This document shows, piece after piece, positions 15,707-42,298 of a DNA stretch of 64,000 nt (the stretch's first letter is position 1; each line of letters opens with the position of its first letter). The stretch spans positions 3,328,001 through 3,392,000 of the forward strand of contig OZ241892.1 of assembly GCA_965203485.1 (NCBI GenBank), in the 5' to 3' direction. The notes under the pieces were generated by a model. That model saw nothing but the letters and a program-made list of their open reading frames with translations, was not told where the DNA came from and did not search any database. Made by a program: the position numbers and the translations under genes. The stretch is from Longimicrobiales bacterium (lineage in GTDB: Bacteria > Gemmatimonadota > Gemmatimonadetes > Longimicrobiales > Gaopeijiaceae).

Positions 15707-17452
15707 ATGACGGCCGAGTCCCGCAACGCTCCTGGCGCGGAACATGTCCTTCTGACGGTGCTGGGCACGCGAACGCGGGAAGCGGCCTACAGCATGGGTG
15801 GCAGGCAAAGCGTCGCTCAGCTGGCTCCGGTGGCCCTGATGGGTCTCTTGTCGCCGGACGAGCGACCGTGTCGCGTACTGGCCTTCTGCACCAACGAGGC
15901 CGAGGCGAGAAGCCTTCCGGTGTTGGAGGATGCGCTGGCGTCCGATGTGGTTGAGTCCGTTCACGTGCCGATGGGCAATCGCCAAGACGACATCGACAGC
16001 TTTCTGGATGCCGTGGCAAGAAAAGTGCCGGAGGGCGCCCAACTCACAGTGGACATGACCCACGGCTTCCGGCACTTCGCAGTCTTGACGTACGTCGCCG
16101 TGCTGTATGTGGCGGCGCTTCGGGACGTTCGGGTCCGCGGAGCGTATTATGCGATGCTGAGTCGCGATGGCGACCCGAGTCCGTTTCTAAACCTGCGCCC
16201 GCTCTTGGACTTGCCCCGATGGGTGCACGCCTTGAAGGTCATTCAGGAAACGGGGAGCACGCGGCCGCTTGCGAAGATCGTCGCCGACGGGCCGGATAGC
16301 GCGGCTGGGCCAGCCAAGGACCGGATTGTCCAGGACTTCCGTAATCTCGCCGACAGATACCTCTCGGGATTGCCGCTCGAGTTGGGCCAGGAAGCGGCCG
16401 ATGTTCGCCGGAAACATGCCAAGTCGCTCCGGAAGGCCCTCAAGCGGGACCATAGTCTGCCGCTGGCCGAGAACGTGATAGACCACCTTGATGAGGTGCT
16501 TGGCCGGTTTGCCTTTGCTAATCCGATTCAGCGCGGCGGATGGAAGAAGGGCGTGAAACTCACGAGAGACGAATTGACGCGACAAGCCAAGGTTATTGAC
16601 GACCTCCTGGAGCAAGCCAATGTATCCGCAGGACTTGGCCTCATGCGGGAATGGATCATCAACTTGGCGGCTCACAGCGCCGACAACGCCGATTGCTGGT
16701 TGGATCGCAAGACGCGCCAGCGGATCGCAAGTCGGCTTCACGCCGTGAGAGCGATAGGAGAATCCGATTTGGCCGACGATCATCTGACGGTAGATCAACG
16801 CGAATTGGGTCAGTTCTGGCAACGGCTCTGTGAGCTCCGCAATGCCTATCATCACCATGGAATGCGTCCGCAAGTAGTTGGCGACAAGGATTTTGTCGGT
16901 AAACTATGCAAGATTCGCGAATTCTGGGATGGAACTCTTAGGTTCTGTCCAGCGATTCACTTGACGCTGGGCAATCCCCCTAGGTGCCGGATAGTAGTCA
17001 GTCCCATGGGCAAGCTTCCGGGCGTCCTCTTCAGTGCCTTGCATGCGTATCGAACGCGATTCGGCGATTATCCTAGCCTGTGCATCGTCATCTGTTCGGA
17101 CCAGACGCGGCCGATGATGGACGAAGCGTTGGCAACAGCTCGATACGAGGGCATATGTGAAGCATTGACCCTGGACGATCCCTTTGGCGGGGTTCAAGAA
17201 ATGGAGAAGAGAGTCAAGGCGACGCGGCGATTTTTCGTCGGTGCGGAGCGAGTAGCCGTGAACGTGACCGGCGGCACGACGTTGATGGGCATTGCGGCAC
17301 AGAGGCTGGCCGGTGAAGCCCGGAGTCTCGCATGCCCCGTTCTTCAGTTTGGGTTGGTTGACTGCAGGCCGTCGGAAGAGCAACGTTTCGATCCATATCA
17401 GATGGGACAAGCGTTCTGGCTGGATTCGGAAAGAGGTGGAGATGTCCATTAG
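15707..17452 (+). CDS. csx1: Csx1 (TM1812/DxTHG family) CARF-HEPN ribonuclease with an extra C-terminal CARF-like domain
   Basis: VLLTVLG, DMTHGFRH (DxTHG), HEPN RNAYHH (RxxxxH), then IVVSPMGKLPGVL...VNVTGGTTLMG. Confidence 0.85.
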   Translation: MTAESRNAPGAEHVLLTVLGTRTREAAYSMGGRQSVAQLAPVALMGLLSPDERPCRVLAFCTNEAEARSLPVLEDALASDVVESVHVPMGNRQDDIDSFLDAVARKVPEGAQLTVDMTHGFRHFAVLTYVAVLYVAALRDVRVRGAYYAMLSRDGDPSPFLNLRPLLDLPRWVHALKVIQETGSTRPLAKIVADGPDSAAGPAKDRIVQDFRNLADRYLSGLPLELGQEAADVRRKHAKSLRKALKRDHSLPLAENVIDHLDEVLGRFAFANPIQRGGWKKGVKLTRDELTRQAKVIDDLLEQANVSAGLGLMREWIINLAAHSADNADCWLDRKTRQRIASRLHAVRAIGESDLADDHLTVDQRELGQFWQRLCELRNAYHHHGMRPQVVGDKDFVGKLCKIREFWDGTLRFCPAIHLTLGNPPRCRIVVSPMGKLPGVLFSALHAYRTRFGDYPSLCIVICSDQTRPMMDEALATARYEGICEALTLDDPFGGVQEMEKRVKATRRFFVGAERVAVNVTGGTTLMGIAAQRLAGEARSLACPVLQFGLVDCRPSEEQRFDPYQMGQAFWLDSERGGDVH

Positions 17453-18662
17453 AAGGGTCGACGCTACCTTCGACGCCACCTTCAGAGTGACCACGCCGAT
17501 GTTTTGCCGCGGTGCTGATGCAACGGGCGCGGAGTTGCGCCTTCCCAGCTTCAAAGGCGTGCTTCGCTACTGGTGGCGTGCGCTGGCCTGGTCCGAGTTC
17601 GGTGGCGACCTTGGCAAGATCAAGAAGAAGGAAGATGATCTCTTCGGTAGCGCAGAATGTGGTCAATCTCGCGTATCAATGCGGCTGAAGGAGCGGCAGT
17701 CGTCGTTGCGTAGTACTAATACTGGTCACGTGTTGAAAGTGCCCGGCACGAATCAACCCGTGGGGTACGGAGCACGGTATCTGGGGTACGGCGTCATGGA
17801 AGCCTTTGCGAGCAAGCCAAAAGGCACGAATGCCGGACAGCTGACACGCGATTGCATCGATAGCGGATTCGATTTTGCCGTGCGAATGCGGGTTTCCGCA
17901 GGTTTCGACCGATCGGTGGCCCTGCTTGAGCGTGCCTTGATTGCGGCTGGATGCTTGGGCGGCCTCGGCGCCAAGAGCCGAAGGGGCTACGGATCGATCG
18001 CCATTTGTTCGCTGATCGTCGACAAGCAATCACGCTCCATGCCGTCGTCCATGGAGGACTTGCGTGCGGCCATCGCTGGTCTTTATCGTAAGTGCCATGC
18101 ATCGCCTGGGCGTTCAGAGCATCCTGAGTACACAGCCTTCTCCGAACATGCCCGTCATGTGTTACTGACGAGCAAGAAGAAGGAATCGCTCGACTTGCTT
18201 GATCTCGTGGGTCGCGAAATCATCCGTTATCGTAGCTGGGGCCGAAATGGGAAAATATTAGGAGACGTCAAGTCGGAAAAGAACTTCAGGAAGGATCATG
18301 ACCTCATGAAGAAGGTGGGAGCCGGCGATCAACCGAACAGACATCCTGAGCGTATTGCTTTTGGTCTTCCCCACAACTATGGACAACGCCAGCAAGTTGG
18401 TCCGAGCGACAAGGATCTGGATCGCAGAGCCAGTCCATTGTTCATCCACATTCACGAATTCGTCGAAGGCCCGGTCGCGGTCCTGTCGTTCCTGCCGGCG
18501 CGTTTCTTGCCCGACCGGTGCGGCATCCGTGTGGGCGGACACAATGTGCAGCAGTTGTCGGAGGAACAGCTGTACGGCCCGGTCACTCGCTTTCTTGACC
18601 GCCTCCTCAATCCGGGCAAACGCAAGGAGGAATTTGTCGACGCAGTGGAGGTAAGGCGGTGA
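17442..18662 (+). CDS. cmr1: Type III-B RAMP Cmr1
   Basis: FRVTTPMF, ELRLPSFKGVLRYWWRA, GGLGAKSRRGYGS, FGLP, RRASPL. Confidence 0.92.
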   Translation: MSIRRVDATFDATFRVTTPMFCRGADATGAELRLPSFKGVLRYWWRALAWSEFGGDLGKIKKKEDDLFGSAECGQSRVSMRLKERQSSLRSTNTGHVLKVPGTNQPVGYGARYLGYGVMEAFASKPKGTNAGQLTRDCIDSGFDFAVRMRVSAGFDRSVALLERALIAAGCLGGLGAKSRRGYGSIAICSLIVDKQSRSMPSSMEDLRAAIAGLYRKCHASPGRSEHPEYTAFSEHARHVLLTSKKKESLDLLDLVGREIIRYRSWGRNGKILGDVKSEKNFRKDHDLMKKVGAGDQPNRHPERIAFGLPHNYGQRQQVGPSDKDLDRRASPLFIHIHEFVEGPVAVLSFLPARFLPDRCGIRVGGHNVQQLSEEQLYGPVTRFLDRLLNPGKRKEEFVDAVEVRR

Positions 18663-20599
18663 TCACGCGGCTCGACATCTCCATCGGCCCGGTTCAGGGC
18701 TTCGTTAGGCAATCCCGGCGAACTCGCGACCTGTGGGGCAGTTCCTACCTCTTGTCGTTCCTTTCGGCTCACGCGATGCACGGTGCCGAGCGGGCGGGCG
18801 GTCAAATTGTCCGGCCACTGGTGGCAAACGACGACCTCTACAAATGGGTGCAGGGTTCCCGGAGCGGCGAGGCGCCGCAGATCGGCTCTCTTCCAAACCA
18901 CTTTGTGGTCGAAGTCGATGGCGACGCACGTAGCGTGGCCGTTAGCGCGAGGGAAGCCCTCGCAACCGCGTGGCGGCAGGTGCACGAGTCCGTCTGGCGC
19001 AAGTTCGTGAAGCCAGTCGAATCGGCTGGGTTGGGCACGCGTGCCATTTGGGATCGCCAAGTGGATGCTTTCTGGGAGATGGCTTGGACAGCCGGCCCAG
19101 CGGGCGACAAACCGGAGCACCGAGGCATGCTGGCGCGACGGAAGCATTGGCGAATCCACGAGCCGACCGAAGAGCCCGGCGACAAGTGCACGATCATGCA
19201 TGACCTGCAAGAACTCTCGGGCTACGTTCGCGCAAGGGATCGCCGGAGTCAAGATCAGTTTTGGTGCGATCTAGGCACGCAGCTGGGAGCGTTGGATCGT
19301 CGCAACAACGAGCGGCTGTGCGCGGTCGCGTTCGTGAAGAGAATGTTTCCGAAAGTCGCGAAAGACGCACTGGGTTGGGATGTCGACCGATCACGATGGT
19401 CTTCAACTATCTACGTTGCGGCCGTGCCTTGGATCGACCGGGTGGCGACGGCGGCGCTCGAGAAGGCGAAATGTTACGCAAAAATCGTCGATGAACATGC
19501 TCCAAAGGGCGTCTTTGCCGAACAGCCGCTCATAAGGAAGGAGATCGGAAGCTTCGCGCGGTTGGATGCCAACTGGTTTCACGCCGAGTCCGTGAAGGAC
19601 GAGGATCGGTGTCCATTGCCGGACGGTGTCACCAGGGTCGGGGAAGTCCGTGAAGAACTTGCTATAATGCTGAAGACCATTTCCAAGACTAAAGACGAGT
19701 CGGGACGTCGGACTGGGGTTCCATCTCTCTACTATGCGCTCTTGCTCGCCGACGGCGACCGCCTGGGCCAATTGGTGGGGAAGTGCGGGAGTGAGTCGGT
19801 GGGAACAGCGCTGGCTGACTTTACTGGTGCCGTTGAAAGAATCGTGCGAAACCACGACGGCGTTACGATCTACGTCGGAGGTGACGACGTGATGGCAATG
19901 TTGCCGTTGCCGAAGGCCTTTCAATGCGCGGCCGAGTTGGAGAGACGCTACCGCAACGCGTTCCGGGACGGCCAGAAGACAGAGATGGAAGCCACGCTCT
20001 CGGCCGGGGTCGCTCTCGCGCACATTCGGTATCCGCTCAGTGGCGTGATTCGCGAAGCCCATCGCCTTCTCGACGATGTGGCCAAGAACGGCAACGGACG
20101 CGATTCGATGGCTGTCGGCGTCCTAAAACGGGGTGGATTGCACTGTCAGTGGACGACTACCTGGAAGCGTCGAGGAGAAGTTGAGCGGGTCCCTGCCCAG
20201 GCGCTTTTGGACGATTTGGTCGGCATTCTCAAGGATGCCGCACTTGATCCGGGCGTCTCGTCGGGACTCATCTATCGCGTGCGGGAGACGCTCACGATGC
20301 TGTGCGGGTGGGATCGCTGGGAGCCAGGAAAATGGGGTGGTGTGCCCGACGATCTTGACGTGCGGGCGTTTCTTCAAGCCGAAATCGCTCGAAGCTTCGC
20401 CGACCGCCGCGCGTCGGTAAGTGTGCCGAAGATGGTGGATCGAGCTAGACAGGCAAGCAATCTGGTCTACGACTTGCTCAAGCGGTCACGCGCCCCAAGT
20501 CCCGACGGACAGGAAACCGAAACCGTCGAAGTGGGCGTCGACGCTCTTCTGCTTGCACGGTTTCTGGCCGACGGTGGCGACGAAGAGGCGACGCGATGA
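18659..20599 (+). CDS. cas10: Cas10/Cmr2, no HD domain, palm motifs intact
   Basis: ISIGPVQGFVRQSRRTRDLWGSSYLLS at the N-terminus; LLLADGDRLG; YVGGDDV. Confidence 0.95.
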   Translation: MITRLDISIGPVQGFVRQSRRTRDLWGSSYLLSFLSAHAMHGAERAGGQIVRPLVANDDLYKWVQGSRSGEAPQIGSLPNHFVVEVDGDARSVAVSAREALATAWRQVHESVWRKFVKPVESAGLGTRAIWDRQVDAFWEMAWTAGPAGDKPEHRGMLARRKHWRIHEPTEEPGDKCTIMHDLQELSGYVRARDRRSQDQFWCDLGTQLGALDRRNNERLCAVAFVKRMFPKVAKDALGWDVDRSRWSSTIYVAAVPWIDRVATAALEKAKCYAKIVDEHAPKGVFAEQPLIRKEIGSFARLDANWFHAESVKDEDRCPLPDGVTRVGEVREELAIMLKTISKTKDESGRRTGVPSLYYALLLADGDRLGQLVGKCGSESVGTALADFTGAVERIVRNHDGVTIYVGGDDVMAMLPLPKAFQCAAELERRYRNAFRDGQKTEMEATLSAGVALAHIRYPLSGVIREAHRLLDDVAKNGNGRDSMAVGVLKRGGLHCQWTTTWKRRGEVERVPAQALLDDLVGILKDAALDPGVSSGLIYRVRETLTMLCGWDRWEPGKWGGVPDDLDVRAFLQAEIARSFADRRASVSVPKMVDRARQASNLVYDLLKRSRAPSPDGQETETVEVGVDALLLARFLADGGDEEATR

Positions 20600-21732
20600 C
20601 CGGCGCCATCAAGTTCGGCCTTCAACTTCGTCCGTTGGACACGTGGTTCTTTCGCGACGGAACGCCCTTCTCGGCCGACGGGGCGCCGCAAGAAGACGTG
20701 AACAGCCTGTTCCCGCCGCACCCTGCGACCGTGGCAGGCGCCGTTCGGGCTTGGCTTGCCCTCCACAACGGCTGGAACGGCCGGGATCGGTGGTCGCCCG
20801 AGATATGCGAGGTGCTTGGCGACGGCCCGGACGAGCTGGGAAAGGTGTCCTTGGAGTGTCCCTTCATTCTTCGTTGCGGACGGCCGCTGTTCCGGGCGCC
20901 ACGGCACTTGCTTGGCACGACGAGCGCCGTCGGATGGAAGCCGCGCGTCTTGTTGCGCCCCGGCAACCCGGTCCTTTGCGACCTGGGCGATGATGTGCGC
21001 CTTCCCGCGCTCCTCGACGTTGCTTCCGGCTGGACCGACGCGAGACCTGGCGAAGACATCTGGCTCAATGAGGACGGGATGCGCGCCGTGCTGAAGGGAC
21101 GGCTTCCGCGCGACGGGGAAGTCATGCATTCCGAGTGCATCTGGGCCAAGGAGCCGCGCATCGGCCTAGAGAGAGATACAACAACCCGGACCGCCGAGGA
21201 AGGCATGCTTTATAGTTCGAGCCACGTCCGTCCAGGACGCGGCGTGTCGCTCGGCGTACGGATCGCTGGCGTCCCGGATCGCTGGACACGGCCTTTCGGT
21301 TCCCTGGTTCCATTGGGAGGCGAGAGTCGACTTGCGGAAGTCGGCGAGTGGGACGGGAACTTTTCGTTGGCGTCAGGCCAGGATCCCCAAAGACACGTGA
21401 CGCTGGTGGCGTTGTCGCCGCTGGATTTGCCGCAAGACGTCTATCGTGGCCGTGGACGGTTGCCTTTGACGGATTTCGGCGATGCGCTGGTGGTGAGCGC
21501 CTGCCTTGGCCGTCCGCAACGCGTCGGCGGTTGGGATTCGCGGAAGCGACGACCGGTGCCCATGAAGTCCGTCCTGGCCCCCGGTAGCGTGCTGTTCTGC
21601 GAATTGCCAGCAACGCCCGCGGAGGATAGCCTGCCGAGCGACGGCCTGATGCGCGTCGGCGCCCGCCAGGAGTGGGGGTTCGGACTGGTGGCTGTCGGCC
21701 GCTGGCCATGCACAGAGGAGATGAACCCATGA
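20596..21732 (+). CDS. cmr3: Type III-B Cmr3 (Cas5 group)
   Basis: LRPLDTWFFRDGTPF, LGGESR, GGWD, APGSV, WGFG. Confidence 0.93.
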   Translation: MTGAIKFGLQLRPLDTWFFRDGTPFSADGAPQEDVNSLFPPHPATVAGAVRAWLALHNGWNGRDRWSPEICEVLGDGPDELGKVSLECPFILRCGRPLFRAPRHLLGTTSAVGWKPRVLLRPGNPVLCDLGDDVRLPALLDVASGWTDARPGEDIWLNEDGMRAVLKGRLPRDGEVMHSECIWAKEPRIGLERDTTTRTAEEGMLYSSSHVRPGRGVSLGVRIAGVPDRWTRPFGSLVPLGGESRLAEVGEWDGNFSLASGQDPQRHVTLVALSPLDLPQDVYRGRGRLPLTDFGDALVVSACLGRPQRVGGWDSRKRRPVPMKSVLAPGSVLFCELPATPAEDSLPSDGLMRVGARQEWGFGLVAVGRWPCTEEMNP

Positions 21733-22571
21733 AAACAGCCATGCTCGGTTTTCTGGCCGAGACGCCGGTACACCCCGGCACAGGACGCGGGATGGGCGTC
21801 GTGGATCTACCAGTAGCTCGCGAGGCCGCCACCGACTATCCGGTCATCGTCGGGTCGAGCCTCAAGGGTGCTCTGCGGGACAAGGAGCAACGGCGGGGTC
21901 AAGACGAGAAGTCCGAGCGACTCTTCGGGAAGGCGGACCAAGCCGGCGACCTCATCATCTCTGACGGCAGGTTGCTGTTGCTTCCGGTTCGCAGCTTGAC
22001 GTCCGCCTACTGCTGGGCGACATGCCCGCACCTGCTGGAACGCTACCGGCGCGATTTAAGGCGTGCGGGTCTGATGTCGCGTGCGGGTCTGATGTCGAAG
22101 TTGATGCTTCCCAACATGGAAAGCAACTTGGACGTCTTGGCCGCCGCCGACGGCGAGCACCTGTTCCTTGAAGAACGACAGTTTTCCATCAAGGGCCAGC
22201 CGCCAGACGAGTTGGTCGAAGCACTCGAGCCGCTCATGCTTCACGAAGAGACCGCACAGCGACTACATAAGCAGTTGGTTGTCCTGCACGACGACGCCTT
22301 CGCATGGTTCGCCAGATATGGCCTCGCCATACAGGCGCGCAATGTCCTAGACGAGAAGAAGAGGAGCAAGAATCTGTGGTATGAAGAGACGTTGCCACCG
22401 GACACGCTGATGTATGCTCTGGTGGCTAGCCGCAACGGAACGCCAACCAACGACCTCAAGCCGATTTTTCGGATGAATGACCCGTATCTCCAAGTTGGTG
22501 GCAACGAAACTGTTGGGCACGGCTGGTTTGTGGTCACGGTGCACCCTGCTGACGACGGAGGCAATCAATGA
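21729..22571 (+). CDS. cmr4: Type III-B Cmr4 (Cas7, target-RNA cleavage)
   Basis: ETPVHPGTG, VDLPVARE (catalytic Asp position), GSSLKGALR, LQVGGNETVGHG. Confidence 0.95.
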   Translation: MKTAMLGFLAETPVHPGTGRGMGVVDLPVAREAATDYPVIVGSSLKGALRDKEQRRGQDEKSERLFGKADQAGDLIISDGRLLLLPVRSLTSAYCWATCPHLLERYRRDLRRAGLMSRAGLMSKLMLPNMESNLDVLAAADGEHLFLEERQFSIKGQPPDELVEALEPLMLHEETAQRLHKQLVVLHDDAFAWFARYGLAIQARNVLDEKKRSKNLWYEETLPPDTLMYALVASRNGTPTNDLKPIFRMNDPYLQVGGNETVGHGWFVVTVHPADDGGNQ

Positions 22572-22948
22572 GGACGTATGAACAAAAAAGAGCAACAGAC
22601 GCGCTGACACGCGTTGAACAGATCGATAAGTCTGAGAACAGTGAAAAAAAGAAAAACTACCGAGCTTACGTAGATCGGCTTGGACCCACGATCGTTGTAA
22701 ACGGCTTGGGCCAGGCGCTCGCATCGGAACTCGCCGCGGATGACCCGTTGCACAAGAAGCTATATAAGAATCTGAAAGGTTGGCTTTGTAGAGACAACGG
22801 CGTATATCCGAAGGATAAGGACCTTCTCCGTGCTATAATGGAACATGACGAATCAAAGTACCTTCGCGCTCAGGCGGAGGCGTTGGCATGGTTGGAATGG
22901 CACAAGAAGTTCTGCCGAGCCAAGTTCCCCAAAGGCGAGGACGATTGA
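22568..22948 (+). CDS. cmr5: Type III-B Cmr5 (small subunit)
   Basis: YRAYVDRLGPTIVVNGLGQALA; EALAWLEWHKKF. Confidence 0.92.
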   Translation: MRTYEQKRATDALTRVEQIDKSENSEKKKNYRAYVDRLGPTIVVNGLGQALASELAADDPLHKKLYKNLKGWLCRDNGVYPKDKDLLRAIMEHDESKYLRAQAEALAWLEWHKKFCRAKFPKGEDD

Positions 22949-22949
22949 G

Positions 22950-24029
22950 GTGGTTCGGCCGCTCTATCGCATCCTGGACGAAGGTGCTCCACCTCGGGTA
23001 CAGCAGGGACATGCGGGTTTGTGGTTCGACAAGTTCTGCGACAAATGGCAAGTGCGGTCCCAATGGGAGATGGGTCAGAACAAGCTGAAGTGGATTGTCG
23101 AATTGACGAAGGAAAAGGTTGGCGGATCATGTCGGGAGAATGCCCATCGGTTGATGAGACTAGCGCAGGCCGCAGGCGGGTGCGCCCAAATCTTCACGAC
23201 GGAATCCCGCTTCGTGACTGGATTAGGGCGCAGTCATCCCGTCGAAAACGGCTTTGCATGGCACCCGACAATGGGCACGCCTTTTCTTCCGGGAAGCTCG
23301 GTCAAGGGGATGATTAGAGCGTGGGCCGAGGCGGAACAGGTGCCCCCATCCGCGTATGAAGGATTGCTCGGATCGGCGGGATCAGTGGGCCGCGTAATCT
23401 TCTTGGACGCGATTCCCACAGAACCGGTGTCGCTGGAAGCCGATGTGATGACGCCCCATTTCGGAGGATGGGACGAGAGCAATCCGCCTGGCGATTGGCG
23501 GTCACCCAAGCCTATCCCGTTCTTGGTTGCGGCGGTTGGGACGCCTTTTCTTTTCTGCCTCGTCCCGACTCCGACGACGAAGGATGACGAGCTAGCCGTC
23601 GCGTCACGGTGGTTGCACGATGCGCTTGCTTGGGCCGGAGCAGGAGCGAAGACGGCCGTGGGCTATGGACGGATGACGCGGGACGAGGAGCGTGAGGGCG
23701 ACCTTCGCAACGAACTCAAGGAACGCGAGGTGGGGGTACGGAGACAACGGGAAAAAGAAGGCCGCTTGGCGGCAATGAGTCCGCTCGAACGAGAGATCGA
23801 TCAAATCCTGACGAACCGGGACGACAAGGGCGTGCCAAGCAGCACGGTCATCTTCAAAGAAATCAAGCGCGGTCGCTGGCAAGGCGACGACAAGAAGGCG
23901 GCGGCGATGCGGTTGGAAACGATGATGAAGGAGGAGAAGAAATGGAGGCCGAAGAGCCAGAAGAAGCGTCCCGAGAAGGACACGGCCCACCGGAGGACCG
24001 GTCGCATTCAGGAATGGCTGAACGAATGA
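22950..24029 (+). CDS. cmr6: Type III-B Cmr6
   Basis: FVTGLG...ENG, PFLPGSSVKG, DVMTPH, PKPIPFL, GAGAKTAVGYG; charged C-terminal extension. Confidence 0.93.
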   Translation: MVRPLYRILDEGAPPRVQQGHAGLWFDKFCDKWQVRSQWEMGQNKLKWIVELTKEKVGGSCRENAHRLMRLAQAAGGCAQIFTTESRFVTGLGRSHPVENGFAWHPTMGTPFLPGSSVKGMIRAWAEAEQVPPSAYEGLLGSAGSVGRVIFLDAIPTEPVSLEADVMTPHFGGWDESNPPGDWRSPKPIPFLVAAVGTPFLFCLVPTPTTKDDELAVASRWLHDALAWAGAGAKTAVGYGRMTRDEEREGDLRNELKEREVGVRRQREKEGRLAAMSPLEREIDQILTNRDDKGVPSSTVIFKEIKRGRWQGDDKKAAAMRLETMMKEEKKWRPKSQKKRPEKDTAHRRTGRIQEWLNE

Positions 24030-24110
24030 GTCGGGCAGTCCGCATGGTGAAGCCAAATGGCCAAGAAGTCTCTTAGCTGGCCCGCAAGTTCCACGGCGAC
24101 CTCAGGCCCC

Positions 24111-25745: not shown

Positions 25746-25904
25746 TGCGACGCTTGAAGAGGTCAAGGTTGAGCCCCCCACGCGTAGTGGAGCGGACCCC
25801 TGCTCCGGAGTGACACTTCGGCGACGGGCGAACCGCATCCGAGGTAGCCGAACTGCAGGACGCTGACGATGCTCGGGCGGCGTCGCGGATCGACCGCGGA
25901 CCGT

Positions 25905-25942
25905 GGACAGATTGATGGGGGAATCTGTCCGAGAATCTGTCA
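25905..25942 (-). repeat. 38-bp palindromic element, copy 2 (inverted relative to copy 1)
   Basis: Reverse complement reads TGACAGATTCTCGGACAGATTCCCCCATCAATCTGTCC; 3 mismatches to 15267-15304. Confidence 0.85.
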
Positions 25943-26113
25943 TGGATCGACGCGGTCCCCTGGGTGGTCCGGCCCCGTCGCGGCACTTCTCGGCGGGGGC
26001 GCAAGTGCTTCCATCTGCCCGAGAGCTGATCAGTACGTTAAACCTTGCTGTTTTCTCTTTCTTACCATCTTATTTTGAGATCGTTCTCCCCCAACACGAC
26101 GGAGCACCAAGCA

Positions 26114-27676: not shown

Positions 27677-27773
27677 TTCCGGGCGCCGGTTGCGTACCTT
27701 GATCGTGCCCTTCCCGACATCCCGCCCCATCCACTGGAGGATCGGGCTCTTTGCATCAGGCCTGGCTGAACGG

Positions 27774-30351: not shown

Positions 30352-30365
<14 letters not shown>
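27774..30365 (+). CDS. cas3: Type I-G Cas3 (helicase followed by C-terminal HD nuclease)
   Basis: APTGSGKT, DEVQ, SAT, HSRF, QRFGRANR; C-terminal WHDVGK, RHE, HHG, ADWRAS. Confidence 0.93.
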
Positions 30366-33685
<3,320 letters not shown>

Positions 33686-33689
33686 TCGG

Positions 33690-35333
33690 GTGTTCGCTTT
33701 TTCCTTTCACTTCCCGGCCGGCCGTTATCATGCGACTCCGTGGGGCCGCAACGTCAACGAAGCCGATGTCGCATGGCCTCCTGAGCCCTGGCGTCTATTA
33801 CGTGCGCTGATCGCGGTCTACAGGCGCAAGGGCAATCGCGAACGTTGGTCCGAGGACCATCTTGGCACGCTCATCCAGAGGCTTGCGGAAAGGCCGCCAG
33901 AATACCGATTGCCAGTCGGAGCCATCCACGCCCACACCCGCCACTATATGCCGAGCGGTCCAAAGACCACGCTGGTCTTCGATGCCTTCCTTAGATTGCC
34001 GATCGACGCAACCTTGGTCGTTTCCTGGCCTCGCGTATCGCTGGAGCCAGAGCTGTTCTCTCTTGCCGCGGACCTCGCCGATGCAGTTGGGTACTTGGGC
34101 CGGGCAGAGAGCTGGACCGAGTGCGAAGCGCATGCAGTGTGGGACGGCCAGTCGAACTGCTGTCCCGCGACCATGGATCTGCAAGGCGATCCGGTACGGC
34201 TGATTGTTCCACTGGGCCAAGATGAATATTCGACGGAGCGAGAGCGCATTATGAGCGAGGTGGAGCGTCAGGTATCTGCGACCGCCAAGCGACCGCTCAC
34301 GAAACGGCAAATCGAAAGCAAGGTCGCCAAGGCATTGATCAGCAAGGGAAGCGGTGCCCATACGTTGCCTGAGCGTCTCGTTGATGCATTGGCACTGGAC
34401 ACGGCCGACTTTCAAGATTGTGGATGGAGCCGCCCGCCAGCATCTCGCGAGATTTTGTATACGCGTGCACCAGAAGTTGTTGCGGGCACGGTTTCTCGTC
34501 GTCGCGTTGGTCGTCGTGCGTCGCGCACGAGACAACAACATCTGCCGACTGTCGCTCGCTTCTTGTTGGCAGGGCGGCCACGTCCCCGCATTGAGGATGC
34601 GGTCACGATTGGCGAGTTGATGCGCCGTGCTGCCCTTTCCCAATTCGGGTGGCGGAAGGAGGAGGCGACGAGACGGTCATTTCCCAACGCTCCACCGGAG
34701 ATTTCCGGGCGCGATGCCGAAGGCAAACCCTTGAAGACCCCGTCGCACGTGCATGCATTCTGGTTACCGGAGGACGCCGACGAGGACGGCAGGATCGACC
34801 ATGTTTCGGTTTTTGTCAGGGGCGGCATGGACGAAGATGTTCAAGCAAAGCTCGGTCGCATCACTCGCCTTTGGCTTGGCGGGGGGCCGCGATCGGAGGA
34901 AGTGGAGGCAGAACCCGGCAACGTGAAGGAATGGCACCTCGCTCTTGAAGGCTTCGGCCAACCGTCGGACTTTGCCGGCGATGCGCGCATCTTCGCCCGA
35001 TCCCGTCGCTGGCGGAGCGTCACGCCGTTCCTTGCGGCCGGGTACTTGAAGGCGGGATACCGCGGGGAAATACATCGTCTGCTGAAGCGGCGCGGAATGG
35101 ACATAGCAGGCGTTGAGGTCAAAGTTCTCGACGACATCTCAGTTGGTGGAACTAAACGGCGCACTTTGCACTATCGACGCTTCCGTTCTCGTGGCCGCGA
35201 GCGGCGCCCAGATTCGGCTGGAGCCCTGCTTGAAGTTGCCTTCCCTGCCGTGAAGGAAGGTCCGTTGGCGATCGGTTACGGGAGCCATTTCGGTCTGGGC
35301 CTCTTCGTCGGAGAGCCGATTGGCGACGATTGA
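33690..35333 (+). CDS. csb2: Type I-G Csb2 (Cas5-Cas6 fusion)
   Basis: GRYHATPW, WPPEPWRLLRAL, YLGRAESW; C-terminal WRSVTPF and Cas6-type G-loop GPLAIGYGSHFGLGLF. Confidence 0.92.
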   Translation: MFAFSFHFPAGRYHATPWGRNVNEADVAWPPEPWRLLRALIAVYRRKGNRERWSEDHLGTLIQRLAERPPEYRLPVGAIHAHTRHYMPSGPKTTLVFDAFLRLPIDATLVVSWPRVSLEPELFSLAADLADAVGYLGRAESWTECEAHAVWDGQSNCCPATMDLQGDPVRLIVPLGQDEYSTERERIMSEVERQVSATAKRPLTKRQIESKVAKALISKGSGAHTLPERLVDALALDTADFQDCGWSRPPASREILYTRAPEVVAGTVSRRRVGRRASRTRQQHLPTVARFLLAGRPRPRIEDAVTIGELMRRAALSQFGWRKEEATRRSFPNAPPEISGRDAEGKPLKTPSHVHAFWLPEDADEDGRIDHVSVFVRGGMDEDVQAKLGRITRLWLGGGPRSEEVEAEPGNVKEWHLALEGFGQPSDFAGDARIFARSRRWRSVTPFLAAGYLKAGYRGEIHRLLKRRGMDIAGVEVKVLDDISVGGTKRRTLHYRRFRSRGRERRPDSAGALLEVAFPAVKEGPLAIGYGSHFGLGLFVGEPIGDD

Positions 35334-35403
35334 TTCCGTGCCCATTATTCCGAGGACCGACTAGCGCCCCACCGCAGGAACCGAAAGCAGGGCCGCCCAT
35401 GGG

Positions 35404-37110
35404 GTGAGACGAGAAGACCAGCTGAGCCTCGCCCTGCCCCCGCTGTCGGCCGACTTCGTCCTTCCGCTGACGCCGGCCCGCATGGTGAACGAATGGGTCT
35501 ACTGCCCTCGGCTGGCGTATTTGGAATGGGTGGAAGGCGAATGGGCGGACAGCGTGGACACGGCCCAGGGGAAGCGGGCTCATGCGGCGGTGGACAAGGG
35601 CGGCGGCGCGTTGCCGGAGCCCGATGCGCTGGACGAGGAGAGGACGCGGGCGAGGTCCGTCATGCTGTCGTCGGAACGGCTGGGCGTGATTGCGAAGATG
35701 GACGTCGTGGAGACGGCCGGCGGCGTGGCCGTTCCGGTGGACTTCAAGAAGGGAAAGCGGCCTCACGTGGCGGCGGGCGCGTACGATCCGGAGCGCGTGC
35801 AGATTTGCGTGCAGGGCATGATTCTCGAGGACAACGGCTACACCGTGAAGGAGGGGGCGCTGTGGTACGCGGGATCGCGGGAGCGAGTTCGGATCGTGTT
35901 GGACGACGAACTCCGGCGCATGACGCTCGAGGCGATTTCGGGTCTTCGGATGGCGGCGTCGGCCCGCCGCCGGCCTCCCCCGCTGGAGAACAGCAGGAAG
36001 TGTCCCAAGTGCTCGTTGGCGGGAATCTGCTTGCCCGACGAGACGAACATGTTCCGCAAGGGCTATCCGCCTCGGCCGCTGAACCCGGCGGACGATCCGG
36101 CGCTCCCGTTGCACGTTCAGGCGCCGGGATCGAAGCTTCGCAAGCGGGGCGACTGCTTGGTGGTGGAGACCGAAGAGGAGTCGGTCGAGGTGCCCATGGT
36201 TCACGTTTCCCAAGTGTCCGTCTACGGCCCCGTGTACGTCACGACGCCGGCTCTTCACGCGTTGATGCGCGCGAAGATTCCGGTCGCTTGGTTCTCGACG
36301 GGCAACTGGTTTCTGGGCCATACGGTCGGCACCGGTCATGGCAACGTCGATGTCCGCCGTGCTCAATACAAGGCGGCCTTCGACCGGCATCGGAGCCTTG
36401 ACTTCGCCCGTTCGCTCGTGACGGCGAAGATTCGCAACTCGTCCACGATGCTGCGTCGGAACTGGCGGCCGGAACGAGGAACGGAAGGCAAGGCGGACGC
36501 GCTGGCGGGGATGAAGCGAGTGGTCCGTCGGGCGCAACATGCAAAGGAACCGCTCGAGCTCCTGGGGATGGAGGGCGAGGCCGCCGCAATCTACTTCGCT
36601 CACTTCGGCCAGATGATCGCGGAGAAGGCATCGGGGCTGGGATTCTCGTTCGAAACGCGGAATCGCCGCCCGCCCACGGATCCGATCAACGCGTTGCTCG
36701 GGTTGGCCTATGCCGTGCTGACGCGGGCGTTCACCGTGGCCGTGTCCACGGTCGGCCTTGATTCCTACTTGGGCCTCTACCACCGGCCCAGGCACGGCCG
36801 TCCTGCGCTCGCCTTGGACCTGATGGAACCGTTTCGGCCCATCGTGGGCGACTCCTGCGTCATTCAAGTCGTCAACAACGGCGAGATCGGCCCCGGCGAC
36901 TTCGTCTTCAACGGTCCGGCCTGCTCCCTCAAGCCCGGCGGCCGCAAGTCGTTCCTTCGGGCGTTCGAGCGGCGGATGGACCAAGAGACAACGCATCCGG
37001 TGTTCGGCTACCGGGTCTCCATGCGCCGGATGATCGAGATACAGGCACGGTTGTTGGCGCGACACCTGCAAGGCGAGGTGTCCCCATATCCCCACTTCCT
37101 TCCGCGGTGA
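35404..37110 (+). CDS. cas1: Cas4-Cas1 fusion
   Basis: YCPRLAY, DFKKG, KCPKCSLAGIC (Cas4); LGMEGEAA, RRPPTDPINALL, LALDLMEPFRP (Cas1). Confidence 0.95.
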   Translation: MRREDQLSLALPPLSADFVLPLTPARMVNEWVYCPRLAYLEWVEGEWADSVDTAQGKRAHAAVDKGGGALPEPDALDEERTRARSVMLSSERLGVIAKMDVVETAGGVAVPVDFKKGKRPHVAAGAYDPERVQICVQGMILEDNGYTVKEGALWYAGSRERVRIVLDDELRRMTLEAISGLRMAASARRRPPPLENSRKCPKCSLAGICLPDETNMFRKGYPPRPLNPADDPALPLHVQAPGSKLRKRGDCLVVETEEESVEVPMVHVSQVSVYGPVYVTTPALHALMRAKIPVAWFSTGNWFLGHTVGTGHGNVDVRRAQYKAAFDRHRSLDFARSLVTAKIRNSSTMLRRNWRPERGTEGKADALAGMKRVVRRAQHAKEPLELLGMEGEAAAIYFAHFGQMIAEKASGLGFSFETRNRRPPTDPINALLGLAYAVLTRAFTVAVSTVGLDSYLGLYHRPRHGRPALALDLMEPFRPIVGDSCVIQVVNNGEIGPGDFVFNGPACSLKPGGRKSFLRAFERRMDQETTHPVFGYRVSMRRMIEIQARLLARHLQGEVSPYPHFLPR

Positions 37111-37119
37111 CGGGCAGAA

Positions 37120-37413
37120 ATGGCCAAGGAGCGTCTGTACATCGTCGCCTACGACATCGCCGACCCGAAGAGATGGCAACGTGTCTTCGGATTGATGAAG
37201 GGCTACGGCTACTGGCTCCAGCTGTCGGTCTTCCAGTGCAGGCTCGCCGGTCGTCGGAGAGCGGAGATGGCGACGCGCCTGAATGAGTTGATAAATTCCG
37301 CCGAAGACCATATTCTGATCATGGACATGGGACCCGCGGACCAGGTGGAGCCACTCGTGGAGAGCCTTGGCAAGAGCTACGAAGCCCCAAAGCGGCAGGC
37401 GACGGTTGTTTAG
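37120..37413 (+). CDS. cas2: Cas2
   Basis: YIVAYDIADPKRW, LQLSVFQC. Confidence 0.95.
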   Translation: MAKERLYIVAYDIADPKRWQRVFGLMKGYGYWLQLSVFQCRLAGRRRAEMATRLNELINSAEDHILIMDMGPADQVEPLVESLGKSYEAPKRQATVV

Positions 37414-37631
37414 GCTCCGCGCCCGCCCGCCTCGGTCGGCGCGACCGCTCGAGTACCGCCCAGGACCCCGCCAGCGGTCGAAAACGTCCGTTTCCCTTAC
37501 CCGGCAACGGCCGCTGATTGACAATACAGGTACAGCAACGCATCGTTACGCGGGCGCAGCGGGCGCACAACAGCCACCGCTCGCAAGTCGTCCCCAAAAT
37601 CGCGGCGCGACACCGACTTGCGGCTAGGTGG
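37414..37631 (+). promoter_or_regulatory. CRISPR leader
   Basis: Non-coding gap between cas2 and repeat 1; TTGACA at 37518-37523; ACCGCTCG twice; GCAAGTCG/CGACTTGC inverted pair near the first repeat. Confidence 0.8.
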
Positions 37632-40600
37632 ACTTCCCCGGCCACCAAGCCGGGGCCTCATTGAAGCGTCCGCGCGCCGCGTGCATTCGACGCCGCGAGT
37701 TCGCGCGACTTCCCCGGCCACCAAGCCGGGGCCTCATTGAAGCGCGTGCGCCCGGTGCGTTTCGCGACGAGCGCGCGTCGAACACTTCCCCGGCCACCAA
37801 GCCGGGGCCTCATTGAAGCGTCCGCACGCCGCCCACCGTCGCGCAATGCGGCTCGCAATAACTTCCCCGGCCACCAAGCCGGGGCCTCATTGAAGCGCCG
37901 GCCATGCCGGTGGCGTCGGCCGCGCGCGCGCGCGACTTCCCCGGCCACCAAGCCGGGGCCTCATTGAAGCGCAGGACGGCGGAGCGACTTGGCACGTGTT
38001 GCCGTTACTTCCCCGGCCACCAAGCCGGGGCCTCATTGAAGCGCGTACTCTTCGCGGACGGTGCCGTCCCACGTGTAGACACTTCCCCGGCCACCAAGCC
38101 GGGGCCTCATTGAAGCGTTGTACCTTACGTCGCGGTCGCTGCCGCGATTCAAGGCACTTCCCCGGCCACCAAGCCGGGGCCTCATTGAAGCACCGAGTTC
38201 CAGTGGGAACAACGCGCCGAGGCGTTCGAACTTCCCCGGCCACCAAGCCGGGGCCTCATTGAAGCGAGGATATGTCCGTGCGGTCCGACGACGCCGCCGA
38301 GGCGGACTTCCCCGGCCACCAAGCCGGGGCCTCATTGAAGCGCTTCGGGCACGACGGCCGGATCGCCGGTCCGCGCGAACACTTCCCCGGCCACCAAGCC
38401 GGGGCCTCATTGAAGCGGCCGGTTGTCGCCGTCCAGCTCGCGGCGCAAGTGGAACACTTCCCCGGCCACCAAGCCGGGGCCTCATTGAAGCATCAGCGCG
38501 CTTGCCAAATGCGCATACGCCGTAAACGACTTCCCCGGCCACCAAGCCGGGGCCTCATTGAAGCGATCCTGCTTTCGCGGCCCGATGTTTCTCACGGAGT
38601 GACTTCCCCGGCCACCAAGCCGGGGCCTCATTGAAGCGAGCCCAGGACATGCGGGAGCGGGCCGAATACTTCACTTCCCCGGCCACCAAGCCGGGGCCTC
38701 ATTGAAGCGGTGCCAAAGATCCCCGAATCGCTAATCCCTTACACAACTTCCCCGGCCACCAAGCCGGGGCCTCATTGAAGCCCCGTCCTGCTCCGTCCAC
38801 AGGCGCAAGTGCTCCCGTACTTCCCCGGCCACCAAGCCGGGGCCTCATTGAAGCTAGCTGGAAGCCGCCCTGCCCTGCCGCCCTGCCCTGCACTTCCCCG
38901 GCCACCAAGCCGGGGCCTCATTGAAGCACCTCCAGCACGTTGCCGGCCTTCGGCGTCGTGGGCACTTCCCCGGCCACCAAGCCGGGGCCTCATTGAAGCG
39001 CGGTGTATGTCAGCAACCGCATGGCGGCCTTCCGGGTCACTTCCCCGGCCACCAAGCCGGGGCCTCATTGAAGCGTTCTTCATCGCGCCGTCATCGCCAA
39101 ACTTCGCTACCGACTTCCCCGGCCACCAAGCCGGGGCCTCATTGAAGCCAAGCGGGGGGATAGCCCTAGCCGCCCATCTTTACGCCCAACTTCCCCGGCC
39201 ACCAAGCCGGGGCCTCATTGAAGCGGAGTTGCCCAGGGCCTTGACCACGGCGTCTCCAAACTTCCCCGGCCACCAAGCCGGGGCCTCATTGAAGCGGGGC
39301 CAAAAAATCCGACACCGGCAGTTTTTCGTCCGCCGACTTCCCCGGCCACCAAGCCGGGGCCTCATTGAAGCGGCTTTCCGGCGGAGTTCAACGGTTTCAT
39401 CAGTAGAACTTCCCCGGCCACCAAGCCGGGGCCTCATTGAAGCTCCACCCCCAGTTCGTGGCACTTGGCCACCACGGTAGACTTCCCCGGCCACCAAGCC
39501 GGGGCCTCATTGAAGCACAGCGTCCCCTTGGCCCCGTGGGCCGTTTGGATGGCGACTTCCCCGGCCACCAAGCCGGGGCCTCATTGAAGCGACACCTATG
39601 CCTTTTTCCTTCAACCAATCACAAAGCACTTCCCCGGCCACCAAGCCGGGGCCTCATTGAAGCCGCAGGAACGTCAATATTTCAGGCCACGTTCCGCTGT
39701 AACTTCCCCGGCCACCAAGCCGGGGCCTCATTGAAGCGTCCGCGTTCCTTAAGCTCCATGGGCGACACTTCGGGTTACTTCCCCGGCCACCAAGCCGGGG
39801 CCTCATTGAAGCTTGTTGAGCTCCGTCACCGTCACCGGCTCCCCGGACTTACTTCCCCGGCCACCAAGCCGGGGCCTCATTGAAGCCCACTTCTACATGC
39901 GCTAGTCTATCGTCGTCACTATCCCACTTCCCCGGCCACCAAGCCGGGGCCTCATTGAAGCCGAATCGCCTAAATCCTTACGTAGCAACGATTTAGGCAC
40001 TTCCCCGGCCACCAAGCCGGGGCCTCATTGAAGCCCCCTCGGCCCCGAAGCACCGGGGCCGGGGCCGAGGGACTTCCCCGGCCACCAAGCCGGGGCCTCA
40101 TTGAAGCGGGAGAGACTGGTTTGGGGTTCCCGAGCCAACACGAACTTCCCCGGCCACCAAGCCGGGGCCTCATTGAAGCGGCATCGGACTTGCACTATCA
40201 CGGGGCACTTGGGCGGACTTCCCCGGCCACCAAGCCGGGGCCTCATTGAAGCGACGGCCCGACCGGGGCTGTCCGTTCCGAAATCGGCCCACTTCCCCGG
40301 CCACCAAGCCGGGGCCTCATTGAAGCTGGTACAAGTACTTGTTTACCGCAAGCGAATCGTTATGACTTCCCCGGCCACCAAGCCGGGGCCTCATTGAAGC
40401 AGGGGAACTCGGGAACATCCGTTTGGGGCCAAAAAATACTTCCCCGGCCACCAAGCCGGGGCCTCATTGAAGCATATCGAGGGTCGATTGCGTTAGGGTT
40501 AATGCTCGCAACTTCCCCGGCCACCAAGCCGGGGCCTCATTGAAGCGGGGGATCCAGGGAACATCCGTTTGGGGTCAAATAATACTTCCCCGGCCACCAA

Positions 40601-42298
40601 GCCGGGGCCTCATTGAAGCCCCGCTTCCGGTACTCTTCCCAGGCCGAACGCTCTTACTTCCCCGGCCACCAAGCCGGGGCCTCATTGAAGCTCGGCCGCC
40701 GGCGTCGGGCGGCGCGTTCGCGGCGCCGGACTTCCCCGGCCACCAAGCCGGGGCCTCATTGAAGCGGCCTCCGTTCGGGCGGGCAATGGCTCCATGGGGG
40801 CACACTTCCCCGGCCACCAAGCCGGGGCCTCATTGAAGCACGATCACGTCGCGGCGCGCCGAGCCCGAGTCGCCAAACTTCCCCGGCCACCAAGCCGGGG
40901 CCTCATTGAAGCGGGCCGCCCCGAAGCCCGAAGAACGCGCGGCGCCGCACTTCCCCGGCCACCAAGCCGGGGCCTCATTGAAGCCCGGATGCGCGGTGTT
41001 CGGCCCAGCGCGCGCGCATCACTTCCCCGGCCACCAAGCCGGGGCCTCATTGAAGCCCTAGGGCTGTGCGCCCGTCCGCGCCGTCCGCGCCCGACTTCCC
41101 CGGCCACCAAGCCGGGGCCTCATTGAAGCTGGCTCATCGGCGGCAAGGACACGGACACCTCTACCCAGACTTCCCCGGCCACCAAGCCGGGGCCTCATTG
41201 AAGCGACCGCGCAGTCGGCGTGACGGGCGCACAGTCGACACTTCCCCGGCCACCAAGCCGGGGCCTCATTGAAGCGACCGCGCAGTCGGCGTGACGGGCG
41301 CACAGTCGACACTTCCCCGGCCACCAAGCCGGGGCCTCATTGAAGCCGGAGGTTCGCCAATGCTGTTGCTAGGCTGTCCATCTTACTTCCCCGGCCACCA
41401 AGCCGGGGCCTCATTGAAGCCCATTTGGTGTGCCCGGTCAGCCATCACTCCAAAAAAGGACTTCCCCGGCCACCAAGCCGGGGCCTCATTGAAGCCGGCC
41501 ATGATTCCTGCCCTGCCAACAGATGCAGATTCGACACTTCCCCGGCCACCAAGCCGGGGCCTCATTGAAGCTCCACTTTTGGTTCTCCAAAAGTGAGCTC
41601 TCGTATGAAACTTCCCCGGCCACCAAGCCGGGGCCTCATTGAAGCGCCTTGGCTTGCCGCAAGCTCGAAAGATTGTTGGCACTTCCCCGGCCACCAAGCC
41701 GGGGCCTCATTGAAGCAAGCGCACCAACCTTCCGTGTATGTGCCATACCCGAACTTCCCCGGCCACCAAGCCGGGGCCTCATTGAAGCGCTATGTTCGTT
41801 CCGGCGTACAAGGTCGAGAGAGTGAACTTCCCCGGCCACCAAGCCGGGGCCTCATTGAAGCCGCTCGACCGGCGCGCCCCGGATCCGCACTGCGCTCGAC
41901 TTCCCCGGCCACCAAGCCGGGGCCTCATTGAAGCGTGGCGCGGCTGGAAAGGGGGGACGAATAATGCAACAACTTCCCCGGCCACCAAGCCGGGGCCTCA
42001 TTGAAGCCCGGGATTGTCGCCTAGGCTATGTCGCGCCGGTAGCTACTTCCCCGGCCACCAAGCCGGGGCCTCATTGAAGCACGGTGTCCCCTTGGCCCCG
42101 TGGGCCGATTTCGGAACTTCCCCGGCCACCAAGCCGGGGCCTCATTGAAGCACGTGGGGCGTAGGTCACTCGTCTTGACATTCTGCCTCACTTCCCCGGC
42201 CACCAAGCCGGGGCCTCATTGAAGCGATCACGCCTTGTAGCTTGTGTACGAGTGAGTCGCGGACTTCCCCGGCCACCAAGCCGGGGCCTCATTGAAGC
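37632..42298 (+). CRISPR. CRISPR array: 64 repeats of 36 bp (ACTTCCCCGGCCACCAAGCCGGGGCCTCATTGAAGC), 63 spacers of 35-41 bp
   Basis: Counted by hand. Repeat has a 7-bp stem CCCCGGC/GCCGGGG and ends in ATTGAAGC, as in type I-G repeats. No degenerate terminal repeat seen. Confidence 0.98.

Follow-up and report, generated by a model that had tools for sequence, protein, structure and literature searches.

It is established that type III CRISPR effectors can share with type I systems of the same cell (PMC7145637; PMC4436667). In the type I-G system of Thioalkalivibrio, the nuclease Csb2 cuts the repeat 4 nt past a 7-bp stem and leaves an 8-nt handle, and afterwards it retains the 3' hairpin while the handle stays unbound (10.1101/2022.08.08.503147). 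In addition, cmr1-6 of Haliangium ochraceum, placed in E. coli together with csb2 and a minimal array, gave target-dependent signalling by cyclic tri-adenylate, cA3 (10.1101/2023.06.23.546230). Here we describe a 64,000-nucleotide stretch of the Longimicrobiales bacterium contig OZ241892.1 (positions 3,328,001 to 3,392,000 of the forward strand), called the window throughout, in which a type III-B (Cmr) gene set and a type I-G operon stand ahead of a single array. We propose, at a probability of roughly 0.78, that this is a complete III-B module lacking Cas6 and adaptation genes, which lives on the CRISPR RNA (crRNA) supply of the I-G system with Csb2 as its processor.

The order on the + strand is csx1-cmr1-cas10-cmr3-4-5-6, an AAA ATPase gene, a Fic gene, and cas3g-cas8g-cas7g-csb2-cas4/1-cas2, as follows (window coordinates):

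15707..17452, + strand: csx1-type effector, CARF-HTH-HEPN-CARF, 581 residues (PADLOC CARF2--CARF_HEPN_CARF, E 1e-132; structure model; alignment)
17292..18662, + strand: cmr1 (TIGR01894 above cut-off; start context points to ATG 17442 as the likely start)
18659..20599, + strand: cas10/cmr2 (TIGR02577 above cut-off; Pfam Cmr2_N from residue 6; GGDD at residue 407)
20596..21732, + strand: cmr3 (TIGR01888, PF09700)
21729..22571, + strand: cmr4, with H15 and D26 (TIGR02580; motif)
22568..22948, + strand: cmr5 (TIGR01881, PF09701)
22845..24029, + strand: cmr6 (TIGR01898)
23985..24047, + strand: junction copy 1, the intact cmr6 end with its stop overlapping the ATG of a decayed cas3 start
24057..25745, + strand: AAA ATPase (Pfam AAA_22; G+C at third codon positions, GC3, 0.89; paralogues)
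26045..27676, + strand: Fic-domain protein (PF02661 marginally over cut-off; GC3 0.88)
27730..27795, + strand: junction copy 2, a decayed 3' end of cmr6 that overlaps the true start of cas3g at ATG 27774 (local score 69)
27774..30365, + strand: cas3g (TIGR02621, 717 bits)
30082..32739, + strand: cas8g1/csx17 (TIGR04113, 612 bits; real start probably near 30358)
32669..33685, + strand: cas7g/csb1, His-Arg pair kept (TIGR02570)
33690..35333, + strand: csb2, a Cas5-like and Cas6-like fusion with H360 and G-loop H537 (TIGR02165, 153 bits; PADLOC Cas56g)
35404..37110, + strand: cas4/cas1 fusion, the genome's only cas1 (NF049935)
37120..37413, + strand: cas2 (TIGR01573)
37414..37631, + strand: probable leader, judged by its position between cas2 and the first repeat
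37632..42298, + strand: CRISPR array of 64 identical 36-nt repeats (repeat scan)
42303..43571, + strand: IS3-family element at the trailer end of the array, outside the system (NF033516, 350 bits)

The products Cmr1, Cas10/Cmr2, Cmr3, Cmr4, Cmr5, Cmr6, Cas3g, Cas8g1/Csx17, Csb1, Csb2, Cas4g/1g and Cas2 all score above their NCBIfam cut-offs, and the Csx1-like product falls slightly below its own. These matches, together with the uniform + strand, confirm the gene order and co-orientation ahead of the array that a first-pass annotation of this DNA had given, and the window scan likewise agrees with it that neither a cas6 nor a second array lies within the window and that there is one adaptation module, a single Cas4/1-Cas2 pair. 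Its count of one array stands for the 64-kb window but not for the genome, where a second array was found at C1:103813-104363, and it had passed over the two non-cas genes, AAA ATPase and Fic, between cmr6 and cas3.

The III-B set is complete, with Cas10/Cmr2 and Cmr1, 3, 4, 5 and 6 all over the cut-offs. Cas10 carries the GGDD cyclase motif and shares the locus with a CARF-HEPN effector, and no HD model matched this Cas10, in which Cmr2_N begins at residue 6. Cmr4 keeps D26 and also has H15, which we take to correspond to the slicer residues of the Pyrococcus protein. The I-G set is complete as well, with Cas3g, Cas8g, Cas7g (Csb1), Csb2 and Cas4/1 over the cut-offs of TIGR02621, TIGR04113, TIGR02570, TIGR02165 and NF049935, respectively.

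What the III-B module lacks was sought in the whole genome (G000), a single contig of 3.56 Mb that is 95.2% complete. Eight family models (PF10040, PF19308, TIGR01877, PF09559, PF01881, PF08798, PF09618 and PF09704), all of which were run on control genomes that gave matches, found no Cas6, Cas6e, Cas6f or Cas5d in it, nor did a relative's Cas6 used as query, nor two custom hidden Markov models built from, and detecting, the Cas6 genes of related loci. The genome holds one cas1, two csb2 and three RAMP-family genes, all of the latter being cmr genes. Both arrays belong to I-G operons, and the Cmr module has no Cas6, adaptation genes or array of its own anywhere in the assembly. From these scans of arrays and enzymes it follows that the crRNA sources of this genome, and such processing enzymes as can be recognised in it, are without exception of the I-G type. 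The absence of a stand-alone Cas6, stated beforehand for the window, therefore extends to the genome at its 95.2% completeness. The annotation had also named a cas6 with a different-repeat array elsewhere as the finding that would count against it: an array with a different repeat does exist, but it is paired with a second Csb2 and not with Cas6, so that processing would still depend on Csb2-type enzymes.

Array 1, that of the window, has 63 spacers of 35-41 nt between its 64 repeats, and its 36-nt repeat forms, when folded, a 7-bp stem with 12 unpaired nucleotides behind it, ending ATTGAAGC. The geometry of this hairpin suits a cut 4 nt beyond the stem that yields an 8-nt handle, and the window's Csb2 retains the catalytic His in its C-terminal domain. 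In the Thioalkalivibrio sulfidiphilus (Tsu) protein the histidines tested were H331 and H503 (PMC9638904), which lie 172 residues apart, and in the window's Csb2 the conserved H360 and the G-loop H537 lie 177 apart. A sequence search of the PDB with Csb2 gave no match, and the equation of H537 with H503 therefore rests on spacing and position rather than on direct alignment to the Tsu protein. By analogy, a Csb2-type cut on the array-1 repeat would leave the 8-nt 5' tag AUUGAAGC, which equals the Pyrococcus tag AUUGAAAG over its first six bases. The Pyrococcus Cmr complex requires the 8-nt tag and a 5'-OH, and its assembly depends on the first two bases of that tag (PMC4215187).

The second array consists of eight copies, seven near-identical repeats and one degenerate, with 6-7 spacers, and it is placed behind a second I-G operon, csb1-csb2-cas3-cas8-like, without cas1 or cas2. 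Since this array and its Csb2 exist, Cmr might be loaded mainly from them, and the lack of a G-loop His in the second Csb2 need not be fatal, given that His-less forms are the only ones in the relative G035 and so may be active. We nevertheless hold this source to be the least probable of all those considered, because its repeat, which differs from that of array 1, would yield the tag ACUGAAGG, deviating at base 2, a base that matters for Pyrococcus Cmr (PMC4215187), because it offers so few spacers, and because the arrays next to this Cmr cassette in relatives end ATTGAAGC. Extrapolating across species, the tag bases and the G-loop His would favour array 1 and the window's Csb2 as the supply of Cmr.

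Two other enzymes might make these guides. Csb1 (Cas7g) could do so, alone or redundantly with Csb2, in which case the supply would still be I-G: Bifidobacterium Csb1 is reported in a preprint to cut the repeat through H122/R123 (10.1101/2022.08.19.504415) and the window's Csb1 retains the His-Arg pair, but in Thioalkalivibrio the repeat is cut by Csb2 only (10.1101/2022.08.08.503147), and related Cmr operons have recruited a half of Csb2, described below, beside which no csb1 was found. We consider this explanation quite improbable. A host RNase, namely RNase E, possibly with RNase J, could alternatively process the Cmr guides as in the III-Bv system of Synechocystis, where RNase E replaces Cas6 (PMC12464536), and an RNase E/G gene is present in G000. 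The III-Bv handles, however, are 13-14 nt long and are cut within an AU-rich stretch (PMC12464536), whereas the window's repeat has Csb2 geometry, and this Cmr lineage tracks Csb2 or Cas6 genes; a host enzyme is accordingly a very improbable processor here.

The proposed role of Csb2 gains weight from the related Cmr operons. A metagenome scan with Cmr6 gave 169 loci, of which 80 were kept, and 21 of the 80 have at least 1 kb of sequence upstream of the first csx1/cmr1 gene. In 8 of these 21 loci, a gene matching only the C-terminal, Cas6-like half of Csb2 lies upstream of csx1/cmr1; the remaining 13 have a conventional Cas6 (4 loci) or neither Cas6 nor half-Csb2 (9 loci). Six of the eight half genes are whole frames, one is cut by the contig end and one is in pieces, and the G-loop His is kept in seven of the eight. 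Pfam recognises only one of the seven that were scanned. Six stand-alone halves lie as follows:

L145:1182-2120: stand-alone half-Csb2 upstream of III-B csx1/cmr1
L161:3599-4501: stand-alone half-Csb2 upstream of III-B csx1/cmr1
L164:3256-4335: stand-alone half-Csb2 upstream of III-B csx1/cmr1
L195:1579-2388: stand-alone half-Csb2 upstream of III-B csx1/cmr1
L199:3319-4365: stand-alone half-Csb2 upstream of III-B csx1/cmr1
L202:3470-4330: stand-alone half-Csb2 upstream of III-B csx1/cmr1

A tree of 57 Csb2 C-terminal domains requires at least five changes between full and half forms, and the halves therefore arose repeatedly. I-G-type repeats with the same 12-nt tail occur in 8 of the 17 array-bearing metagenomic Cmr loci. 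A quick, weakly resolved Cmr4 tree of 84 rows, from which duplicates and roughly three in four rows below 38% identity were excluded, puts the window into a weakly supported group together with three half-Csb2 loci and one Cas6 locus. Taken together, the half-Csb2 loci and this grouping indicate that among wider relatives of the window's Cmr the place of Cas6 is filled by a Csb2-type domain.

The same association is seen between genomes. Cas10 searches found 63 genome loci, nine of them at 49-58% identity, and these nine genomes were searched along with five more distant ones (32-38%). Csb2 is present in 9/9 genomes with the closest Cas10 and in 0/5 with a distant one, and a PF10040 Cas6 is present in 1/9 and 4/5, respectively. 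Among 250 genomes of the class, 28 are Csb2-positive and 7 Cas10-positive, and all 7 carry Csb2, with no Cas6 found in them by three models. The sample of 150 family genomes, which overlaps that of the class, has 24 with Csb2, and 4 of its 5 genomes with a Cas10 palm match have Csb2 too; the match in the fifth, which is without Csb2, is a weak one in a 1546-residue frame. Moreover, in 4 of 6 class relatives the Cmr cassette adjoins an I-G locus or an I-G-type array: it lies inside the I-G locus in G019, G046 and G161 (in G046 between csb2 and the array), and beside cas4/1-cas2 and an I-G-type array in G015.

A trace of a former connection between the two modules is preserved within the window itself. 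The 65 bases that surround the cmr6 stop are repeated at the start of cas3 with a local score of 69, and 5070 control windows gave a best score of 48 and a mean of 27. The first copy joins the intact cmr6 end to a decayed cas3 start and the second is the reverse, and the motif at the cmr6 end is conserved among Cmr6 homologues. In the loci L148 and L160, cmr6 overlaps cas3 by ATGA. Because the junction is duplicated here and the ATGA overlap is found there, the two gene sets would appear to descend from one operon, translationally coupled with the cmr6 stop overlapping the cas3 start, that was later split by the AAA ATPase and Fic genes. These two genes are probable later insertions, with GC3 of 0.89 and 0.88 where the cmr genes and the I-G effector genes have 0.53-0.75, and the AAA ATPase belongs to a multi-copy host family with seven matches in the genome. 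We considered both as cas accessories and rejected this on account of their host-like codons and, for the AAA ATPase, its multi-copy family. The same blocks, and with them the joint between Fic and cas3, are found again on contigs of a different study (X6), none of which spans the whole stretch.

Several observations weigh against our proposal. In the fetched flanks of all nine closest loci (9/9) the cassette has no I-G genes, and it is unlinked to them in 2 of the 6 class relatives. A conventional Cas6 stands beside closely related Cmr genes in G009 and L141, Cas6e occurs in three of the nine closest genomes (G002, G005 and G006), and G007 has a weak Cas6 match; this Cmr lineage is not Csb2-obligate. 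In G004 the Csb2 is in two pieces, and G035 has the His-less forms only. The co-occurrence counts are confounded by kinship and shared habitat, which inflate them, and for this reason we give no p-value. About 5% of G000 may be missing, and one X5 contig diverges from the window at 27744, ahead of cas3. The binding of Csb2 to its 3' product is tight, with a dissociation constant (KD) of about 43 nM (10.1101/2022.08.08.503147), which could channel the crRNA to Cascade, and the loading of array-1 crRNA into Cmr is something that we infer from sequence. Finally, no strand bias of the spacers was detected by an indirect codon-model test, which placed 37/62 spacers of this array in the orientation that pairs with mRNA (p 0.16), 384/746 in Cmr-bearing genomes and 109/217 in control genomes without a Cas10 match; the classifier is 80% accurate on host genes, and the test is too weak for the effect of roughly 55% published for shared-array systems (PMC8482600).

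Some of these points would fit a mobile orphan cassette in a defence island, one that carries no guides or receives them through a Cas6 encoded in the part of the genome absent from the assembly, since the cassette travels as one piece and is often distant from I-G genes, the spacers have no strand bias and the genome is 95% complete. All cassette genes, however, are intact with their active-site motifs, Csb2 co-occurs in 9/9 and 7/7 genomes and the cmr6/cas3 junction is duplicated, and we regard such an orphan as highly improbable.

Supply of Cmr through Csb2, as the first-pass annotation had also suggested, thus remains the best-supported reading, by virtue of the repeat geometry, the His, the co-occurrence, the half-Csb2 genes and the junction, and it would operate in four steps. 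Judging by their families, Cas4/1-Cas2 would add spacers to the array. In the window's Csb2, the Cas6-like domain at the C-terminus would then cut each repeat 4 nt past the 7-bp stem to give the tag AUUGAAGC, a cut demonstrated for the Thioalkalivibrio orthologue and predicted here from the geometry and the His. Csb2 would presumably hold the 3' hairpin and leave the tag free, so that either Cas7g (I-G Cascade) or Cmr2-5 could assemble on the crRNA, the Cmr-bound RNA then probably being trimmed at its 3' end. Lastly, DNA would be cut by Cascade with Cas3g and RNA by Cmr through Cmr4, and Cmr, with GGDD and without HD, would make a cyclic oligoadenylate, probably cyclic tetra-adenylate (cA4), to activate Csx1 as a HEPN RNase, and the additional CARF domain of that protein would probably degrade the signal, this being the weakest step.

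This extra domain, overlooked in the first pass, is a second, C-terminal CARF at about residues 425-576 of Csx1. The HEPN motif starts at R378, which is invariant in 96/96 aligned proteins (96 of 121 sequences were aligned). In a structure model with a confidence score (pLDDT) of 89, residues 10-416 resemble Marinitoga Csx1 (Z 18.1, root-mean-square deviation 4.5, 378 aligned), and residues 425-576 resemble the CARF of Can2 (Z 15.5) and the Crn1-family Sis0455 (Z 13.0), the sensor CARFs (Can2, Z 15.5) being as close in fold as the Crn1 proteins (Z 12.7-13.0). By fold, a Csx1 core joined to a second nucleotide-binding domain has the layout of Csx1-ring nuclease fusions, and a built-in ring nuclease is a plausible role for the modelled C-terminal CARF. 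The Marinitoga Csx1-Crn2 fusion (PDB 8y6z) likewise has a Csx1 core with a C-terminal add-on, which there is Crn2 but in the window has the CARF fold. We found 305 homologues among 8000 candidates. The architecture cannot be called new, as the PADLOC profile CARF2--CARF_HEPN_CARF already exists, next to Csx1 fusions with Csx3, Csx16 and Csx20; our literature search found no biochemical study of it. A search with the C-terminal CARF gave 22 short homologues among 74 candidates, which were dropped as stand-alone ring nucleases since some may be fragments. A survey of ring nucleases took candidates only up to 250 residues (PMC12409355), and fusions such as CARF-HEPN-CARF would therefore go uncounted in it.

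Further features of the arrays and their surroundings were recorded. The IS3 element, also overlooked in the first pass, begins a few bases past the last array-1 repeat and no degenerate end-repeat remains there, for which reason the original end of array 1 has probably been lost. Several spacers, at window 39296-39335, 39517-39554, 40253-40290, 40401-40437, 40547-40583, 42081-42115 and 41205-41310, have 13-23 nt in common with one another, as might result if related elements had been sampled more than once, and spacer 49 is the same as spacer 50. No spacer matched phage records, one motif common to two spacers had no match in viral contigs, and G000 contains no full-length self-target; these searches thus yielded no protospacer from which to read the TTN PAM of type I-G. 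The second I-G operon lies at G000:C1:97735-104363 (L004:9735-16363), and it is closely copied, at 76-84% identity and with a repeat that is nearly the same, in the same-genus genome G334 (L113). Just upstream, at L004:1347-8003, a 2218-residue DEAD/DEAH helicase with an MZB domain is flanked by AAA_21 ATPases, in what looks like a defence island. Within the window, a 21-nt tandem repeat lies inside a coding region at 49919-50154, and a promoter/terminator scan gave a signal no better than chance level.

Other loci present variations on Csb2. In an I-G operon at L071:9562-11073 (G002), a His-type half-Csb2 immediately follows a full-length His-less Csb2, which suggests that the latter is supplemented by a separate nuclease domain, and at L079:5744-10312 (G006) Csb2 and Cas3 share one 1523-residue open frame, a possible fusion. 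An unrelated III-B clade, with further CARF genes, stands right after csb2 at L077:10290-18667 (G005) and L083:3415-11397 (G008). A reduced and likewise unrelated III-A module, consisting of a Cas10 of about 500 residues, Csm2, Csm3, Csm4 and the CARF protein TIGR02710, lies directly behind csb2 within the I-G operon at L073:7144-12348 (G003) and L099:3948-8843 (G125). The open reading frames scanned gave no cas6 match at any of the four loci with these modules and no Csm5 match at L073 and L099, where Csb2 might replace Csm5 as the 3' cap. One could go further and envisage a so far undescribed branch of type III that is processed by Csb2, in which Cmr and Csm modules attach themselves to I-G operons time and again and shed Cas6, some of them take over just the Cas6 half of Csb2 as a dedicated processor, and in the extreme form (L073 and L099) hairpin-bound Csb2 caps the 3' end in a physical I-G/type III hybrid complex, with the window as an intermediate stage; as a joint claim this is speculative and, in our estimation, unlikely.

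If Csb2 indeed supplies Cmr, I-G would be added to the type I systems from which type III effectors obtain guides in nature, as a trait that recurs within a lineage and not a laboratory convenience. Annotation tools that look for Cas6 only would miscall such loci incomplete, and stand-alone Csb2 halves would be called broken I-G genes, though they probably serve III-B operons as their Cas6. The locus would also offer a clean test of how a nuclease tightly bound to the 3' end hands one crRNA pool to two effectors, and of a putative CARF-HEPN-CARF RNase that may switch itself off.

Among known systems, a type III effector that relies for crRNAs and adaptation on a type I system in the same cell is also seen in Marinomonas (I-F/III-B), in Pyrococcus (I-A/Cst/III-B) and in category 3 of PMC8482600; in the accessible part of that shared-array catalogue, the partners with shared repeats are of types I-A, I-B and I-C, and a pair with I-G is absent. 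We rejected the Pyrococcus "I-G" as a precedent for Csb2, given that it is a Cst system served by a stand-alone Cas6 (PMC4436667). Thioalkalivibrio sulfidiphilus I-G (PMC9638904) resembles the window in Cas3g, Cas8g/Csx17, Cas7g and Csb2 and in a 36-nt repeat with a 7-bp stem and an 8-nt handle, but the window's I-G has a Cas6-less Cmr upstream. In myxobacteria, III-B clusters are often without Cas6 and I-G is common in some suborders (PMC11237760). Our literature search, with most subscription papers outside its reach, found no publication dealing specifically with the supply of Cmr by Csb2 or with Csb2 halves that stand alone. Nonetheless, the novelty of Csb2 sharing implied at first was overstated in view of H. 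ochraceum (10.1101/2023.06.23.546230), which has Cmr1-6, Csb2 as the only processing enzyme supplied, a minimal array and target-dependent output; the main-text section on that E. coli assay has no minus-Csb2 control, though the extended data may hold one. In that system SAVED-CHAT/PCaspase is the effector and cA3 the signal, in contrast with the CARF-HEPN-CARF Csx1 of the window, and Csb2 sharing was a tool and not the subject of the study, whereas the window has adjacent modules with a relic of their coupling. The locus is thus a natural instance of the known type I/III sharing with a laboratory precedent, to which it adds the recurrence among relatives, the half-Csb2 genes and the junction relic.

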